From assembly GCF_003334305.1 (NCBI RefSeq), contig NZ_QOWS01000016.1: DNA of 64,000 nt. One strand, given 5' to 3'. Both the position numbers and the translations under genes were made by a program. Origin of the DNA: Escherichia coli (GTDB lineage Bacteria; Pseudomonadota; Gammaproteobacteria; Enterobacterales; Enterobacteriaceae). Shown here one piece after another: positions 14,323 to 20,468 of the stretch. Within the stretch, counting starts at the first letter, position 1; every line of letters starts with the position of its first letter. Under the pieces are notes generated by a model, which worked only from the letters and a program-made list of their open reading frames with translations, had not been told where the DNA came from and searched no databases.

Positions 14323-15234
14323 ATGCGACTATTTAACTGGCGACGTCAGGCGGTGTTAAACGCCATGCCACTGGTCAAACCTGACCAGGTGCGTACACCG
14401 TGGCATGAATTCTGGCGACGATTTCGCCGTCAGCATATGGCGATGACCGCCGCATTATTCGTTATTTTATTGATTGTGGTGGCCATTTTTGCACGCTGGA
14501 TCGCTCCCTATGACGCCGAAAATTATTTTGATTATGACAATCTGAATAACGGACCTTCTTTGCAGCACTGGTTTGGCGTCGATTCACTGGGGCGCGACAT
14601 TTTCAGCCGTGTCCTGGTTGGTGCGCAAATCTCGCTGGCGGCGGGCGTGTTTGCCGTGTTTATCGGTGCGGCGATAGGGACGTTGCTGGGCTTGCTGGCT
14701 GGATATTATGAAGGCTGGTGGGATCGGCTGATCATGCGCATTTGCGATGTGCTGTTTGCCTTCCCGGGTATTTTACTGGCGATCGCTGTTGTTGCGGTGT
14801 TGGGAAGCGGCATTGCTAACGTGATTATCGCAGTCGCCATTTTTTCCATCCCCGCGTTTGCCCGCCTGGTGCGCGGCAACACGCTGGTGTTGAAACAGCA
14901 AACCTTTATTGAGTCAGCACGCAGTATTGGTGCCAGCGATATGACCATTTTATTGCGTCATATCTTGCCTGGGACCGTCTCGTCTATCGTGGTGTTTTTC
15001 ACCATGCGCATTGGCACCTCGATTATCTCTGCCGCCAGCCTGTCATTTCTCGGCCTCGGTGCGCAGCCGCCGACACCAGAGTGGGGAGCAATGCTCAATG
15101 AGGCACGAGCGGATATGGTTATCGCGCCGCATGTCGCTGTTTTTCCGGCCCTGGCTATTTTTCTGACCGTACTGGCGTTCAATTTGTTGGGCGATGGTTT
15201 ACGCGATGCGCTGGATCCGAAAATTAAAGGATAG
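14323..15234 (+). CDS. gsiD: Glutathione ABC importer permease
   Basis: 303 aa, hydrophobic; DppC/OppC-like permease. Confidence 0.9.
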
Positions 15235-15411
15235 TTACGTTTGAATATTGCTTGAAAGGGTAATCACCTCACAGGAAATTATTGCCCTAAGCAAGTGTTG
15301 TAACTTTCTGCTGATTTTGTAGAATCGGGTAATTTGGTTAAAAAGCCGCAGCAAGGGACTATTTTTGCAGCGGCACAGCGTTCAGATAGTTATTTTGTTA
15401 AATGTATTAAC

Positions 15412-17760
15412 ATGCTGAGTTTATACGAAAAGATAAAGATAAGGCTGATAATTTTATTTTTATTGGCAGCACTGTCATTTATTGGTCTTTTTTTCATCAT
15501 TAACTATCAACTGGTATCGGAACGCGCGGTAAAACGTGCCGATAGCCGCTTTGAACTTATTCAGAAAAACGTTGGCTATTTCTTTAAAGATATTGAACGT
15601 TCGGCCCTGACATTAAAGGACTCACTGTATTTATTAAAAAATACAGAGGAGATTCAACGCGCCGTGATTCTGAAAATGGAAATGATGCCATTTTTAGACT
15701 CGGTGGGACTGGTACTTGATGATAATAAATATTATCTCTTTTCACGGAGGGCGAATGATAAAATCGTTGTTTATCATCAGGAACAAGTAAATGGACCGCT
15801 TGTCGACGAGTCAGGGCGGGTTATTTTTGCCGATTTTAACCCATCGAAACGACCGTGGTCGGTGGCTTCAGATGACTCTAACAACAGCTGGAATCCGGCA
15901 TACAATTGCTTTGATCGTCCGGGTAAAAAATGTATCTCTTTTACGCTACGTATCAACGGCAAAGATCACGATTTGTTAGCGGTAGATAAAATTCATGTCG
16001 ATTTAAACTGGCGGTATCTGAACGAGTATCTTGATCAAATCAGCGCTAATGATGAAGTTCTATTTTTGAAACAAGGTCATGAGATCATTGCCAAGAATCA
16101 ACTCGCTCGTGAAAAACTGATTATTTATAATAGCGAAGGTAATTATAATATTATTGATTCTGTCGATACGGAGTATATTGCAAAGACATCAGCAGTGCCA
16201 AATAATGCATTGTTCGAAATCTATTTTTATTATCCTGGCGGTAATTTATTGAACGCATCAGATAAACTTTTTTATCTACCGTTTGCGTTCATTATTATCG
16301 TGTTGCTGGTGGTATATTTCATGACCACTCGTGTGTTCCGTCGGCAATTTTCTGAAATGACCGAGCTGGTTAATACGCTGGCGTTTTTGCCCGACTCAAC
16401 GGATCAAATCGAGGCTCTGAAAATTCGCGAAGGCGATGCGAAAGAGATTATCAGCATCAAAAATTCGATCGCGGAAATGAAAGATGCCGAAATTGAACGG
16501 TCAAATAAATTGCTCTCACTGATCTCTTACGATCAGGAAAGCGGTTTTATTAAAAATATGGCGATTATTGAGTCCAACAATAATCAGTATCTGGCTGTGG
16601 GGATCATCAAACTGTGTGGTCTGGAAGCCGTGGAAGCGGTGTTTGGTGTTGATGAACGCAATAAAATCGTCAGGAAATTGTGTCAGCGAATTGCCGAGAA
16701 ATATGCGCAATGCTGCGATATCGTGACATTCAATGCCGATCTCTATTTACTTCTGTGTCGGGAAAATGTACAGACATTTACCCGTAAAATAGCGATGGTA
16801 AACGATTTTGACAGCAGCTTTGGCTACCGCAATCTGCGCATCCATAAGTCTGCCATTTGTGAACCTTTGCAGGGGGAAAACGCCTGGAGTTACGCAGAAA
16901 AACTGAAACTGGCGATTTCCAGTATCCGTGACCATATGTTCTCCGAGTTTATTTTTTGTGATGACGCGAAACTCAACGAAATAGAAGAGAATATCTGGAT
17001 TGCGCGTAATATTCGCCATGCAATGGAAATTGGCGAACTATTCCTCGTCTATCAACCGATCGTTGATATTAACACCCGCGCCATTCTGGGCGCGGAGGCG
17101 TTGTGCCGTTGGGTTTCTGCGGAGCGGGGGATCATTTCACCGCTGAAGTTCATTACCATTGCTGAAGATATCGGGTTTATCAATGAGCTGGGTTATCAGA
17201 TTATTAAAACGGCAATGGGTGAATTCAGACATTTTAGTCAGCGTGCGTCGCTGAAGGATGATTTCTTACTGCATATTAATGTTTCGCCCTGGCAGTTAAA
17301 CGAACCGCACTTTCATGAGCGTTTTACCACCATCATGAAAGAAAATGGCCTGAAGGCGAACAGCCTCTGTGTTGAGATCACTGAAACCGTGATCGAGCGA
17401 ATTAATGAACATTTTTATCTCAATATTGAACAACTGCGTAAACAAGGGGTACGGATATCGATTGATGACTTTGGCACCGGTTTGTCAAACCTGAAACGTT
17501 TTTATGAAATTAATCCAGACAGCATAAAGGTGGACTCGCAATTTACCGGCGATATTTTCGGTACTGCGGGAAAAATTGTGCGCATTATTTTCGATCTGGC
17601 ACGCTATAACCGGATCCCGGTGATTGCGGAAGGCGTAGAGAGCGAAGACGTTGCGCGCGAATTAATCAAATTAGGATGTGTTCAGGCCCAAGGGTATCTG
17701 TACCAGAAACCCATGCCATTCTCCGCCTGGGATAAAAGTGGAAAATTAGTAAAAGAGTAG
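15412..17760 (+). CDS. pdeI: c-di-GMP phosphodiesterase (EAL) with N-terminal periplasmic sensor region
   Basis: ATG 15412 gives 782 aa (YliE); N-terminal TM helix, large periplasmic region, second TM, then an EAL domain ([14 protein letters not shown]). Confidence 0.85.
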
Positions 17761-17767
17761 TTTACGT

Positions 17768-19096
17768 ATGTCCAGAATCAATAAGTTCGTACTTACAGTC
17801 AGTCTGCTGATTTTTATCATGATTTCAGCAGTTGCCTGCGGGATCTACACTCAAATGGTAAAGGAACGGGTGTATAGCCTGAAACAGTCCGTTATTGATA
17901 CTGCTTTTGCGGTGGCAAATATTGCTGAATATCGGCGTAGCGTGGCAATTGATCTTATCAATACGCTAAATCCCACGGAGGAACAGCTGTTGGTTGGCTT
18001 ACGCACAGCTTACGCTGACTCGGTTTCACCCTCTTACTTGTACGATGTCGGTCCTTATCTGATTTCCAGTGACGAATGTATTCAGGTAAAGGAGTTCGAG
18101 AAAAATTATTGTGCAGATATTATGCAGGTTGTGAAGTATCGACATGTCAAAAATACAGGGTTTATCTCTTTTGACGGTAAAACCTTCGTCTATTACCTCT
18201 ATCCGGTAACTCACAATCGTAGTCTGATATTTTTGCTTGGTCTGGAGCGTTTTTCTTTACTGTCAAAATCGCTGGCGATGGACAGCGAGAACCTGATGTT
18301 CTCTCTGTTTAAGAACGGTAAACCGGTGACCGGTGATGAATATAATGCTAAAAACGCCATCTTCACCGTTTCGGAAGCGATGGAGCACTTCGCCTATTTG
18401 CCGACCGGATTGTATGTATTTGCGTATAAAAAAGATGTTTATTTGCGGGTTTGTACATTGATTATTTTCTTTGCCGCATTGGTGGCAGTGATATCGGGTG
18501 CCAGTTGCCTCTATCTGGTACGCAGAGTGATTAATCGTGGTATTGTGGAGAAAGAAGCCATCATTAATAACCATTTTGAACGCGTACTGGATGGCGGGCT
18601 TTTCTTTTCGGCTGCCGATGTCAAAAAACTCTACAGTATGTATAACTCGGCGTTCCTGGACGACCTGACCAAAGCAATGGGCAGAAAATCCTTTGACGAA
18701 GATTTAAAAGCGCTGCCGGAAAAAGGCGGTTATTTGTGCCTGTTTGACGTCGATAAATTCAAAAACATTAACGACACCTTCGGTCATTTGCTGGGCGATG
18801 AAGTGTTGATGAAAGTGGTGAAAATCCTTAAATCACAGATCCCGGTAGATAAAGGTAAAGTCTACCGCTTCGGCGGTGACGAATTTGCGGTGATTTATAC
18901 GGGTGGAACGCTGGAAGAGTTGCTATCGATTCTAAAAGAAATCGTTCATTTCCAGGTGGGAAGCATTAATTTAAGTACCAGTATCGGTGTAGCACATTCA
19001 AATGAATGTCCTACCGTCGAACGCTTGAAAATGCTGGCGGATGAGCGGCTGTATAAGAGTAAGAAAAACGGCAGGGCACAGATTAGCTGGCAGTAA
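17768..19096 (+). CDS. dgcI: Diguanylate cyclase (GGDEF) with periplasmic sensor region
   Basis: 442 aa (YliF); two TM segments flanking a periplasmic domain; C-terminal [14 protein letters not shown] motif. Confidence 0.85.
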
Positions 19097-19106
19097 TCAT
19101 TATTCG

Positions 19107-19136
19107 CAGGCCGGACAAATGATTTTGCCCGGCCTG
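19107..19136. terminator. Stem-loop between convergent dgcI and rimO
   Basis: CAGGCCGG-loop-CCGGCCTG inverted repeat; no strong flanking U-run. Confidence 0.4.
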
Positions 19137-19142
19137 AATTAA

Positions 19143-20468
19143 TTAAACCCGGCTACCCCACAAATCGTACTCATCGGCGTGCTCGACTTTCACACGCAGG
19201 ATATCACCCGGCTTAACGTTGGTTTCACCATTGAGATAAACCGCGCCGTCGATTTCCGGTGCATCTGCCATGCTGCGACCAATTGCGCCTTCTTCGTCCA
19301 CTTCGTCGATAATCACCAGAATTTCACGGCCCACTTTCTCTTGCAGGCGCTCGGCGGAAATCTGCTGCTGCAGCTGCATGAAACGGTTCCAGCGTTCTTC
19401 TTTCACTTCTTCCGGAACCTGGTCAGGCAGGGCATTGGCGTCTGCACCTTCAACCGGGCTGTATTTAAAGCAGCCAACGCGATCCAGACGCGCTTCTTTC
19501 AGGAAGTCGAGTAGCATCTGGAAATCTTCTTCTGTCTCGCCAGGGAAGCCGACAATAAAGGTTGAGCGTAGGGTCAGTTCCGGGCAGATTTCGCGCCACT
19601 GTTTGATGCGCGCCAGTTGGCGATCTACAGAACCCGGACGCTTCATCAGTTTGAGAATGCGCGGGCTGGCGTGCTGCAACGGAATGTCCAGATACGGCAG
19701 GATTTTGCCTTCTGCCATCAGTGGGATGACGTCGTCCACATGCGGATAAGGGTAAACGTAGTGCAGACGTGTCCAGATCCCCAGTTTCGATAACTGTTCG
19801 CACAGGCTGACCATGCTGGTTTTTACCGGCTCGCCGTTGTGGAAGCCAGTACGATGTTTAACATCAACGCCATAGGCGGAAGTATCCTGCGAGATCACCA
19901 GAATCTCTTTAACGCCCGCATCTACCAGACGTTTCGCTTCACTTAACACTTCGCCAATCGGACGGCTCACCAGGTCGCCGCGCATAGACGGAATAATGCA
20001 GAAGGTGCAGCGGTGATTACAGCCTTCTGAAATTTTCAGATAGGCATAATGACGCGGTGTCAGTTTCACACCTTGTTCTGGCACCAGGCTCAGGAATGGG
20101 TTGTGTTTCGGTTTTGGCACGTAGTGATGAACGTGCTCCAGAACCTGCTCATAGCTATGAGGCCCGGTGATTTCCAGCACTTTCGGGTGGACTTCGCGGA
20201 TCTGATCTTCTTTTGCCCCCAGACAACCGGTCACAATTACCTTGCCGTTTTCATTCAACGCTTCACCAATGGCTTCCAGTGATTCTTGTACCGCGCTGTC
20301 AATAAAGCCGCAGGTGTTGACGATCACCATGTCCGCATCGTCATAGCTCGGTACCACGTCATAACCTTCAGTGCGTAGTTCGGTGAGAATACGCTCTGAA
20401 TCGACAAGGTTTTTCGGACAGCCAAGGGAAACAAAGCCGATTTTCGGCTGGGGAGTTACTTTGCTCAT
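19143..20468 (-). CDS. rimO: Ribosomal protein S12 methylthiotransferase (radical SAM MTTase)
   Basis: 441 aa; CNHRCTFC radical-SAM motif; N-terminal MTTase domain cysteines. Confidence 0.9.

Follow-up and report, generated by a model that had tools for sequence, protein, structure and literature searches.

Adjacent pdeI and dgcI genes of Escherichia coli encode a predicted c-di-GMP phosphodiesterase and a diguanylate cyclase with modeled double-Cache periplasmic sensors

Results

The pdeI-dgcI locus

Within the window, by which we mean the whole 64,000-nucleotide stretch of E. coli DNA analyzed here, two neighboring genes represent the known pdeI-dgcI operon, a low-GC Escherichia cassette encoding two inner-membrane c-di-GMP enzymes, each of which would be controlled by a periplasmic double-Cache sensor of its own and which together would form a push-pull unit; this is the interpretation we favor, with moderate confidence. 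Of the roughly 29 GGDEF/EAL proteins in E. coli, most have unknown input signals, and few have received as little study as PdeI and DgcI. The features of the locus are collected in Table 1.

Table 1. Features of the pdeI-dgcI locus (nucleotide positions in the window)
Feature	Position	Strand	Basis or remark
Candidate sigma-70-like promoter, TTGTAA-16-TAGAAT	15298..15325	+	9/12 consensus positions; within the 177-nt gsiD-pdeI spacer
pdeI (yliE) CDS, 782 aa	15412..17760	+	sequence identity, annotation
PdeI membrane helix 1, aa ~12-30	15445..15501	+	hydropathy peak 3.1; uncleaved anchor or signal peptide
PdeI periplasmic double-Cache sensor (modeled), aa 33-285	15508..16266	+	CHASE9 only aa 35-150 (nt 15514-15861)
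PdeI putative dCache amino-acid motif residues F142, R147, W149, Y164, D197	15835..16002	+	spacings x4, x1, 13, 32
PdeI conserved Cys pair C166/C174	15907-15933	+	inside the motif stretch
PdeI membrane helix 2, aa ~286-304	16267..16323	+	hydropathy scan
PdeI cytoplasmic linker and middle domain, aa 305-525	16324..16986	+	
PdeI EAL domain, aa 532-767, complete catalytic set	17005..17712	+	Pfam; alignment to 2r6o, 5yrp
Spacer from pdeI stop to dgcI ATG, 7 nt	17761..17767	+	
dgcI (yliF) CDS, 442 aa	17768..19096	+	sequence identity, annotation
DgcI membrane helix 1, aa ~8-26	17789..17845	+	hydropathy scan
DgcI periplasmic GAPES2 sensor, aa 28-222, compact double-Cache-like fold (modeled)	17849..18433	+	
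DgcI conserved Cys pair C104/C115	starts at 18077 and 18110	+	
DgcI membrane helix 2, aa ~224-245	18437..18502	+	hydropathy scan
DgcI GGDEF domain, aa 295-437	18650..19078	+	Pfam; alignments to DosC, DgcZ
GC-rich hairpin between convergent dgcI and rimO	19107..19136	.	folding vs shuffles

A 3.9-kb stretch carrying the pair was 100% identical to the genome of E. coli 05-3629, in which the two genes bear the annotations pdeI and dgcI and lie between gsiD and rimO. Each of the 5,426 complete E. coli genomes searched had a match to this stretch, with a coverage of at least 80% in 5,381 of them. DgcI is identical to the protein of K-12 MG1655 (YliF, b0834), and PdeI differs from its K-12 counterpart (YliE, b0833) at 3 of 782 residues only (H180R, E257A and L303F), all of them outside the motif residues; locus, gene order and protein lengths are likewise shared. 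The pair is the already named E. coli pdeI and dgcI and in itself adds nothing new, the genes, their domain families and the plasmid cellulose link described below having all been published. Its chromosomal neighbors are gsiABCD, rimO, bssR and yliI, and no effector or target gene adjoining the pair was found among the neighboring genes inspected. The GC content of the cassette (0.42-0.43) is lower than that of the flanking genes (0.52-0.53).

The mechanically derived open reading frame of pdeI begins at a TTG codon (position 15334), while the annotated ATG yields a lysine- and arginine-rich N-terminus followed by a membrane helix. Judging from their spacing only, the two genes look like a single operon and would be co-transcribed. 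The promoter upstream of pdeI is presented as a candidate only, since sigma-70-like sites were not more frequent in the region than in shuffled sequences. The hairpin downstream of dgcI (-20.3 kcal/mol; z = -5.0) was matched in stability by none of 200 shuffles and is probably a two-way terminator. An RpoN SELEX peak has been published between pdeI and dgcI. A candidate sigma-54 promoter for dgcI with two mismatches (17472-17487) was rejected, as 36 such sites were found against 45 expected in shuffles. An Rfam scan and a repeat search of positions 15000-19400 returned neither an RNA family nor the ends of a mobile element.

Two c-di-GMP enzymes of opposing type

A preliminary description of this DNA had proposed that the two neighboring genes encode c-di-GMP enzymes of opposing type, that each protein carries a large region between two membrane helices, and that PdeI is devoid of an obvious catalytic GGDEF motif which, in contrast, is intact in DgcI. 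All of this held on closer analysis. Hydropathy scans revealed two strong helices in each protein, and the catalytic residues of both predicted enzymes align with those of solved enzymes. PdeI consists of a transmembrane helix, a modeled dCache region (CHASE9 and a second module), a second transmembrane helix, a linker, a non-catalytic middle domain and an EAL domain. The latter matched the Pfam family PF00563 with an E-value of 2e-69 over positions 2-236 of the 236-position model, and alignment to 2r6o and 5yrp showed conservation of EALxR, NvS, EiTE, DDFGTG (loop 6), KvD, EGvE and QG, with EALCR at aa 562-566 (nt 17095-17109) and DDFGTG at aa 685-690 (nt 17464-17481). In agreement with this complete catalytic set, a published residue table lists EALR/QRDD/TE/ENEEDKEQ for yliE. 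PdeI is thus predicted from its full EAL catalytic set to be a c-di-GMP phosphodiesterase. Overexpression of PdeI was reported to confer resistance to phage N4, as did other phosphodiesterases (PMC8669469), and mutations in pdeI can suppress the impaired motility of a pdeH deletion strain, as relayed in a later paper (PMC12890032).

The middle domain of PdeI (aa ~366-525) is more difficult to classify. The protein contains no GG[DE]EF motif and did not match the Pfam GGDEF family even at E<=10; the sequence NADLY (aa 441-445; nt 16732-16746) occupies the GGDEF position. Searched alone against Pfam, NCBIfam and PDB profiles, the middle domain returned no match. Alignment of its family to the GGDEF domains of the DgcI family with hhalign gave the expected register, with NADLY under GGDEF, but only weakly (E = 0.13; probability 0.5%), and the inclusion of 84 GGDEF homologs together with five GGDEF domains of the DgcI family left the match weak (E = 0.016; probability 2.9%). 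Full-length NCBIfam alignments to GepA and DosP reach back to aa 377-388 of PdeI. The region was named HAMP plus degenerate GGDEF (xGGDEF), and helix 1 was labeled a signal peptide, in a recent preprint (10.1101/2025.05.09.653004); in our hands, no Pfam HAMP match followed helix 2 at E<=10.

DgcI harbors a transmembrane helix, a compact dCache-like GAPES2 region, a second transmembrane helix, a linker of about 45 residues and a GGDEF domain, the active site of which is intact (Pfam PF00990; E = 1.6e-24). GGDEF is found at aa 369-373 (nt 18872-18886) and DVDKFK at aa 327-332, and the catalytic residues (D-x-D-x-F-K...ND..GH..GD) are present in alignments to DosC and DgcZ. An RxxD allosteric site five residues before GGDEF is common in diguanylate cyclases, of which it is not a defining feature. 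This inhibitory site is absent upstream of the GGDEF motif of DgcI, where RSSD of DosC aligns to P-DKG, and is absent from all paralogs as well; in a published residue table, the I site of DgcI likewise reads GE instead of the consensus DR. Of four Shigella cyclases analyzed by LC-MS/MS, DgcI caused the largest rise in c-di-GMP, an effect abolished by a GG-to-AA substitution (PMC11327459).

Periplasmic sensors modeled as double-Cache domains

The region bracketed by the two helices of each protein (aa 33-285 in PdeI and 28-222 in DgcI) is predicted to face the periplasm because basic residues lie on the cytoplasmic sides. That these regions are periplasmic sensor domains, as had been suggested earlier, rather than unstructured linkers, is supported by structural models in which both are folded as double-Cache domains (pLDDT 88 for PdeI and 79 for DgcI), in which a long N-terminal helix leads into two alpha/beta modules, one distal and the next proximal to the membrane. 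The DgcI model is of moderate confidence, three of the five models having a pLDDT near 50. The PdeI region matched CHASE9 (PF17153; E = 2.3e-62; aa 35-150; six of nine family sequences matching) and the DgcI region GAPES2 (PF17156; E = 2.3e-143; aa 26-229; six of six matching). Comparison of the two sensor families with hhalign revealed no detectable sequence similarity (probability 0.1%); a common origin of the two sensors was accordingly rejected, and the comparison yields no evidence that they bind the same ligand. Both cysteine pairs recur in all full-length family members, despite overall identities of 20-34%. In the PdeI model, the pair lies in the distal module, at the base of a beta-hairpin.

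[quoted passage not shown] Four of these five residues are found in PdeI (F142-x4-R147-x-W149 ... Y164 ... D197), with spacings of 13 and 32 residues that fall within the published ranges, F and S standing at the positions of motif residues Y121 and Y129. The motif was placed by spacing and secondary structure, not by structural superposition. When the 31,032 residues of the six-frame open reading frames of the window were scanned, PdeI alone displayed a loose match. Among its paralogs, those of L002 and L009 carry the full YxxxxRxWY...Y...D motif, and the L005 lineage has none. PdeI otherwise differs from the known dCache_1AA sensors (PctA, Tlp3 and Mlp24/37; PMC8915833) by low identity (about 10-15%), an extra Cys-bridged hairpin, and its output, which is an EAL domain instead of a chemoreceptor. 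It also lacks a match to Pfam dCache_1 (PF02743), its sensor matching CHASE9 only, so that motif surveys relying on this profile would miss it; two of nine PdeI relatives matched dCache_1 weakly (E = 1e-3 to 0.1; best 1.1e-3), and one matched MCP-like_PDC_1 at 1.8e-3.

No Cache domain was retrieved by a profile search of PDB sequences with the PdeI sensor family, and PDB sequence searches with full-length PdeI and DgcI returned EAL and GGDEF chains only. Since the modeled PdeI sensor fold is dCache, a match to a SapA-type binding protein (E = 0.005 over 70 residues) was rejected as due to chance. The GAPES2 domain of DgcI has neither tryptophan nor the amino-acid motif; it resembles the periplasmic tandem-PAS/dCache sensors of KinD, CqsR and LuxQ at 9-14% identity, a likeness that does not point to a class of ligand. 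The papers found named no ligand for the sensor of either PdeI or DgcI.

Paralogous cassettes and distribution

The order EAL then GGDEF is maintained in four lineages of the cassette, the sensors of which are 20-34% and the catalytic domains 45-59% identical. Pairwise identities (PdeI/DgcI) are 38%/40% in L002, 32%/34% in L005 and 69%/78% in the syntenic L008, and the order is also kept in L009; spacing is tight, the genes overlapping by 11 nt in L002 and lying 9 nt apart in L009. The active site of the GGDEF domain is fully conserved in all paralogs. The dgcI query matched 106 plasmid records and the pdeI query 76. The pdeI-like and dgcI-like genes were adjacent in all 15 plasmids with listed coordinates for the two. 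In 24 of 24 plasmids with listed coordinates for the dgcI-like gene and bcsA, the latter lay directly downstream of the paralog and in the same orientation, beginning 1.0-1.3 kb past the N-terminal portion of the dgcI-like gene that was matched. On some plasmids (L006), a dgcI-like gene flanked by IS1 and devoid of a pdeI-like partner still neighbors bcsA. The plasmid- and island-borne YliE/YliF pairs at bcsA2-4 cellulose clusters (10.1101/2025.05.09.653004) resemble the chromosomal pair in architecture, order, spacing, cysteine pairs and active sites, but differ in sequence (32-40% identity overall and 20-34% in the sensors), in GC content (0.33-0.35) and in their linkage to bcsA, which the chromosomal pair lacks; the AA motif is complete in two of these lineages and lost in one.

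Residues 1-530 of PdeI, searched exhaustively against 1.84 billion representatives, yielded only 55 matches, most of which were fragments with an identity of 60% or more to E. coli PdeI, and two GAPES2 searches returned Escherichia and Shigella names only. A genome scan with two N-terminal peptide patterns, which alone is no proof of absence elsewhere, retrieved E. coli, E. albertii, E. whittamii and one contaminant. These sequence searches combined support a narrow family in which the pdeI-dgcI cassette would be limited to Escherichia and close relatives. A frameshifted dgcI allele of 399 residues stands for 1,305 database sequences, and natural strains show IS1 insertions as well as an IS1-mediated deletion of the pair.

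Discussion

In the mechanism that we propose, each sensor would bind a small molecule in its membrane-distal module, and helix 2 would relay the ensuing change to the geometry of the dimer and hence to the activity of the catalytic domain. Because the two sensors share a fold without sequence similarity, and because a putative amino-acid-type pocket is seen in PdeI only, the cues read by PdeI and DgcI are most likely different, that of PdeI being an amino acid or a close derivative. Since DgcI, devoid of an RxxD site, would escape inhibition by its own product, co-transcribed PdeI would probably serve as its dedicated brake, the two making up a push-pull unit. The output of the plasmid cassettes, which lie directly upstream of bcsA, would probably be the activation of cellulose synthase. 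A bolder version, which we put forward as speculative, is that the CHASE9 region of PdeI is a cryptic and highly diverged dCache amino-acid sensor, and that PdeI and its bcs-linked paralogs are amino-acid-gated phosphodiesterases co-translated with a feedback-insensitive cyclase in a private push-pull switch gating an exopolysaccharide synthase.

That the chromosomal pair would work as a signal-specific local module, as the preliminary description suggested, is plausible. The conservation of the EAL-then-GGDEF cassette in four diverged lineages and the presence of bcsA downstream on plasmids argue for it; the lack of any PdeI-DgcI contact reported in the literature text that was readable, and of an effector gene beside the chromosomal copy, argue against it. 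The text of a two-hybrid study names no result for PdeI, and DgcI was toxic in that system, from a higher-copy vector (PMC5635695). Known local modules of E. coli (DgcJ-NfrB, and DgcC/PdeK with cellulose synthase) similarly consist of a membrane diguanylate cyclase and/or phosphodiesterase serving one exopolysaccharide synthase, much like the bcsA-adjacent plasmid cassettes. They differ in being defined by demonstrated protein contacts; the chromosomal pdeI-dgcI pair has no linked synthase.

Among the alternatives, the one that deserves most consideration, although we deem it clearly less probable than the push-pull reading, is that PdeI and DgcI act independently on a common c-di-GMP pool in response to unrelated cues and are adjacent only because they were transferred horizontally together. 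The dissimilar sensors, the chromosomal neighborhood free of effector genes, the solitary dgcI-like gene of L006 and the excess of plasmid records matching dgcI over those matching pdeI all point this way, as do the unrelated phenotypes of single deletions in strain CFT073, where loss of yliE affected neither motility nor adherence while loss of yliF increased adherence, opposite to what is expected from the loss of a cyclase. Yet the order and tight spacing kept in four sensor-diverged lineages would be difficult to account for if the pair were not under selection, and the two genes were invariably adjacent in the 15 plasmids mentioned above. We regard it as unlikely that the cassette is mostly silent, decaying cargo, that is, poorly expressed foreign DNA with little function in many strains. 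Its low GC content, the frameshifted allele and the IS1 events would fit such decay, and so would the failure to detect DgcI by immunoblot in K-12 and earlier reporter data indicating very low expression (PMC5635695). Against it stand the coverage of the stretch in nearly all complete genomes, the intact catalytic residues of the pair in the window, the retention of an intact and active dgcI by Shigella despite the loss of most of its cyclases (PMC11327459), and the induction of both genes at 37 C in a uropathogen (PMC12890032).

That DgcI acts chiefly by contacting other proteins, as a scaffold or a regulator, and not through the c-di-GMP that it makes, appears somewhat more doubtful still. 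DgcI carrying the GG-to-AA substitution still reduces Shigella invasion and plaque size (PMC11327459), and early curli expression is elevated in a subpopulation of cells when dgcI is deleted; these effects suggest a role beyond catalysis, and the increased adherence of the yliF mutant has been noted above. The active site is nonetheless fully conserved in all paralogs, expression of DgcI strongly raises c-di-GMP (PMC11327459), and WspR, an unrelated cyclase, complemented the yliF mutant with respect to adherence. The least probable of the explanations considered is redox sensing without a ligand, whereby the periplasmic cysteine pairs would form DsbA-dependent disulfides switching the enzymes, as in PdeC. 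CSS-domain phosphodiesterases of the PdeC type likewise present a periplasmic loop with conserved cysteines between two helices ahead of EAL, and the conservation of both pairs despite low overall identity, the modeled position of the PdeI pair at the base of a hairpin in the distal module and the adjoining glutathione importer genes gsiABCD are consistent with this idea. Conserved periplasmic disulfides are usually structural, however, the gsi adjacency proves nothing, and PdeI, which has no Pfam match to the CSS-motif domain, belongs to a different periplasmic family modeled with a dCache fold.

Returning to the push-pull reading, a by-product of the analysis is a concrete route to a ligand, as the PdeI sensor keeps the Arg, Trp, Tyr and Asp of the putative amino-acid pocket and two paralogs retain the whole motif. 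Assignment of the PdeI signal could extend to the plasmid-borne cellulose switch of poultry and human isolates.

The pdeI-dgcI locus

Two adjacent open reading frames had been recognized here in the preliminary description as pdeI and dgcI, a c-di-GMP phosphodiesterase gene and a diguanylate cyclase gene. Their positions and identity are borne out by the ORF coordinates, by the annotation of E. coli 05-3629 (100% identity across the stretch), in which pdeI-dgcI is flanked by gsiABCD and convergent rimO, and by comparison with K-12, whose DgcI is identical and whose PdeI shows three residue differences. The feature is real, rightly placed and rightly identified, and both are known, named genes. 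Every one of the 5,426 complete E. coli genomes gave a match, and in 5,381 of them at least 80% of the stretch is covered.

Only 7 nt separate the two genes, which lie in a block with a GC content of 0.42-0.43 against 0.52-0.53 for neighbouring genes (0.53 for both gsiCD and rimO); repeats and mobile-element ends were looked for at the borders of this islet and none was found. Upstream of the annotated pdeI ATG, no stop codon interrupts the frame over 26 codons, as far as a TTG; the ATG is the better fit to the membrane topology. The strong GC-rich hairpin between dgcI and rimO was overlooked by a simple terminator scan. An RpoN SELEX peak has been published between yliE (pdeI) and yliF (dgcI); sigma-54-like sites at the locus, one of them listed below, are no more frequent than expected by chance.

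Features of the pdeI-dgcI locus and its products (window positions in nucleotides; aa, residues of the protein)
Feature	Position	Strand	Details
Open frame upstream of pdeI	15334-15411		from TTG
Low-GC block	15235-19140		
pdeI	15412-17760	+	782 aa
Sigma-54-like site TGGCACCGGTTTGTCA	17472-17487	+	within pdeI, over DDFGTG codons, ~290 nt upstream of dgcI
dgcI	17768-19096	+	442 aa
Hairpin	19107-19136		-20.3 kcal/mol, z = -5.0
PdeI periplasmic region	aa 33-285		predicted
PdeI CHASE9	aa 35-150		Pfam
PdeI EAL	aa 532-767		Pfam
PdeI EALCR motif	aa 562-566		
PdeI DDFGTG motif	aa 685-690		
DgcI periplasmic region	aa 28-222		predicted
DgcI GAPES2	aa 26-229		Pfam
DgcI GGDEF	aa 295-437		Pfam
DgcI GGDEF motif	aa 369-373		

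Catalytic domains

The enzyme identities are near certain. Alignment with solved active enzymes showed all catalytic and metal-binding residues to be present in the EAL domain of PdeI, with which the published residue table for yliE concurs, and the GGDEF active site of DgcI is complete. The motifs quoted in the preliminary description were recovered, and its reading of the pair as opposing c-di-GMP enzymes holds, as does its remark that the middle of PdeI is devoid of a catalytic GGDEF motif. The RxxD inhibitory site is absent from DgcI, where other residues align under the RSSD of DosC (the published table gives 'GE' for this site), and was found in none of the DgcI paralogues aligned. The middle of PdeI has been described as a degenerate GGDEF domain (10.1101/2025.05.09.653004). 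Two profile-profile comparisons of aa 366-525 with GGDEF placed NADLY beneath the GGDEF motif, as expected for such a domain, at weak significance (E 0.13 and 0.016); searched alone, the segment matched nothing in Pfam, NCBIfam or PDB. No HAMP profile match was found in PdeI with Pfam.

Periplasmic sensors and a ligand lead

In both proteins, two helices are strongly hydrophobic and basic residues mark their cytoplasmic sides, from which the intervening regions were assigned to the periplasm. PDB sequence searches found no solved structure similar to either region. Both were modelled, small alignments being built from the few diverged relatives, and the models show each protein with a folded, predicted dCache-type sensor, in agreement with the sensor domains first proposed. 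Comparison of the two sensors revealed no sequence relationship between them. A cysteine pair lies at a hairpin base in PdeI (C166/C174) and another is present in DgcI (C104/C115), both being kept in every full-length relative.

The published dCache_1 amino-acid motif reads YxxxxRxWY, 13-17 residues, Y, 27-34 residues, D (PMC8915833). PdeI reads F142-NPSK-R147-P-W149-S, 13 residues, Y164, 32 residues, D197, and gave the only loose match to the motif among 31,032 residues of six-frame ORFs in the window. These residues were placed by spacing and predicted secondary structure rather than by superposition, and the motif in PdeI thus stays a lead. The motif is complete in two diverged paralogues, from plasmid locus L002 (YVARERPWY...Y...D) and island locus L009 (YIPELRQWY...Y...D), and is lost in a third lineage (plasmid locus L005 and protein entry P0052). 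The DgcI sensor contains neither a tryptophan nor the motif. This lead is the sole element not found in the papers searched; the gene pair itself is already known.

Distribution and diverged copies

Residues 1-530 of PdeI yielded just 55 matches among 1.84 billion representative proteins, most of them fragments at least 60% identical to E. coli PdeI, with a handful of diverged relatives. GAPES2 searches returned Escherichia and Shigella names only, close relatives of the GGDEF domain bear names including E. fergusonii and E. marmotae, and E. albertii and E. whittamii came up in a genome scan of limited scope.

Four further versions of the pair retain the EAL-then-GGDEF order and tight spacing. 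One, L008 (Logan run ERR5005171), is syntenic (gsiCD-pdeI-dgcI-rimO) and comes from a relative further removed than E. albertii (93% across the N-terminal 290 aa of DgcI); its PdeI and DgcI are 69% and 78% identical to ours against 91% for GsiC, and the sensor enzymes are therefore diverging faster than their neighbours. L002, on plasmid p40EC-3, shows 38% and 40% identity and an 11-nt gene overlap; L005, on plasmid pTB402, shows 32% and 34%; and L009 adjoins integrase and TraI genes. Identity across versions is 20-34% in the sensors and 45-59% in the catalytic domains, and the GC content of the paralogues is 0.33-0.35. L005 also carries a perfect 9-nt tandem repeat, ACAGTATTA (8762-8867, 11.8 copies), encoding an Asn-Ser-Ile run inside the periplasmic sensor of the plasmid PdeI paralogue, a tract that could be length-variable.

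The pdeI-like and dgcI-like genes were adjacent in 15 of the 15 plasmids with both coordinates listed. Among the plasmids also present in the list for bcsA, the cellulose synthase gene, 24 of 24 have bcsA on the strand of the dgcI-like gene, starting 1.0-1.3 kb past the N-terminal portion of the latter that was matched; the intergenic gap is 823 nt in L002, and bcsA lies 35-41 kb away in the two L005-type plasmids. This linkage confirms and quantifies that reported in the preprint (10.1101/2025.05.09.653004).

Proposed working of the pair

The co-oriented, tightly spaced genes encode an EAL enzyme and a GGDEF enzyme, both intact, the latter lacking a feedback site. Each sensor would bind its own small molecule, that of PdeI being an amino acid or close derivative, and the signal would reach the catalytic dimer through the second helix. 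PdeI may act as a dedicated brake for a cyclase unable to limit itself, which fits the high output of Shigella DgcI (highest c-di-GMP among four cyclases; PMC11327459) and the toxicity of K-12 DgcI from a higher-copy two-hybrid vector, the protein being undetectable by immunoblot (PMC5635695). The plasmid context suggests activation of cellulose synthase as the ancestral output. Taken as a whole, we judge this picture to be somewhat probable; its weak steps are the ligand class and the coupling. The earlier idea that PdeI and DgcI could form a local module has gained comparative support.

Curli expression responds in a complex way to deletion of dgcI. In CFT073, deletion of yliF increased adherence, and the yliE deletion is not among the mutants reported with altered motility or adherence. 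CFT073 induces both genes at 37 °C, and the pdeH motility defect is described as suppressible by pdeI mutations (PMC12890032). Overexpressed PdeI protected against phage N4 like other active phosphodiesterases (PMC8669469), and a GG-to-AA substitution in Shigella DgcI abolished synthesis with invasion still reduced (PMC11327459).

Allelic variation

Among dgcI alleles in public data (P0004; H4, H6, H8, H11, H12; L014), a frameshifted 399-aa form accounts for 1,305 database sequences, and IS1 lies in dgcI in some genomes. Other observations, each in some genomes, are insertion of a RelE/ParE toxin-antitoxin pair into the dgcI-rimO interval and an IS1-linked deletion removing pdeI and most of dgcI. 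A 249-nt contig of a Nocardioides malaquae assembly (L013), which matches the beginning of E. coli dgcI at 100% identity, is almost certainly contamination.
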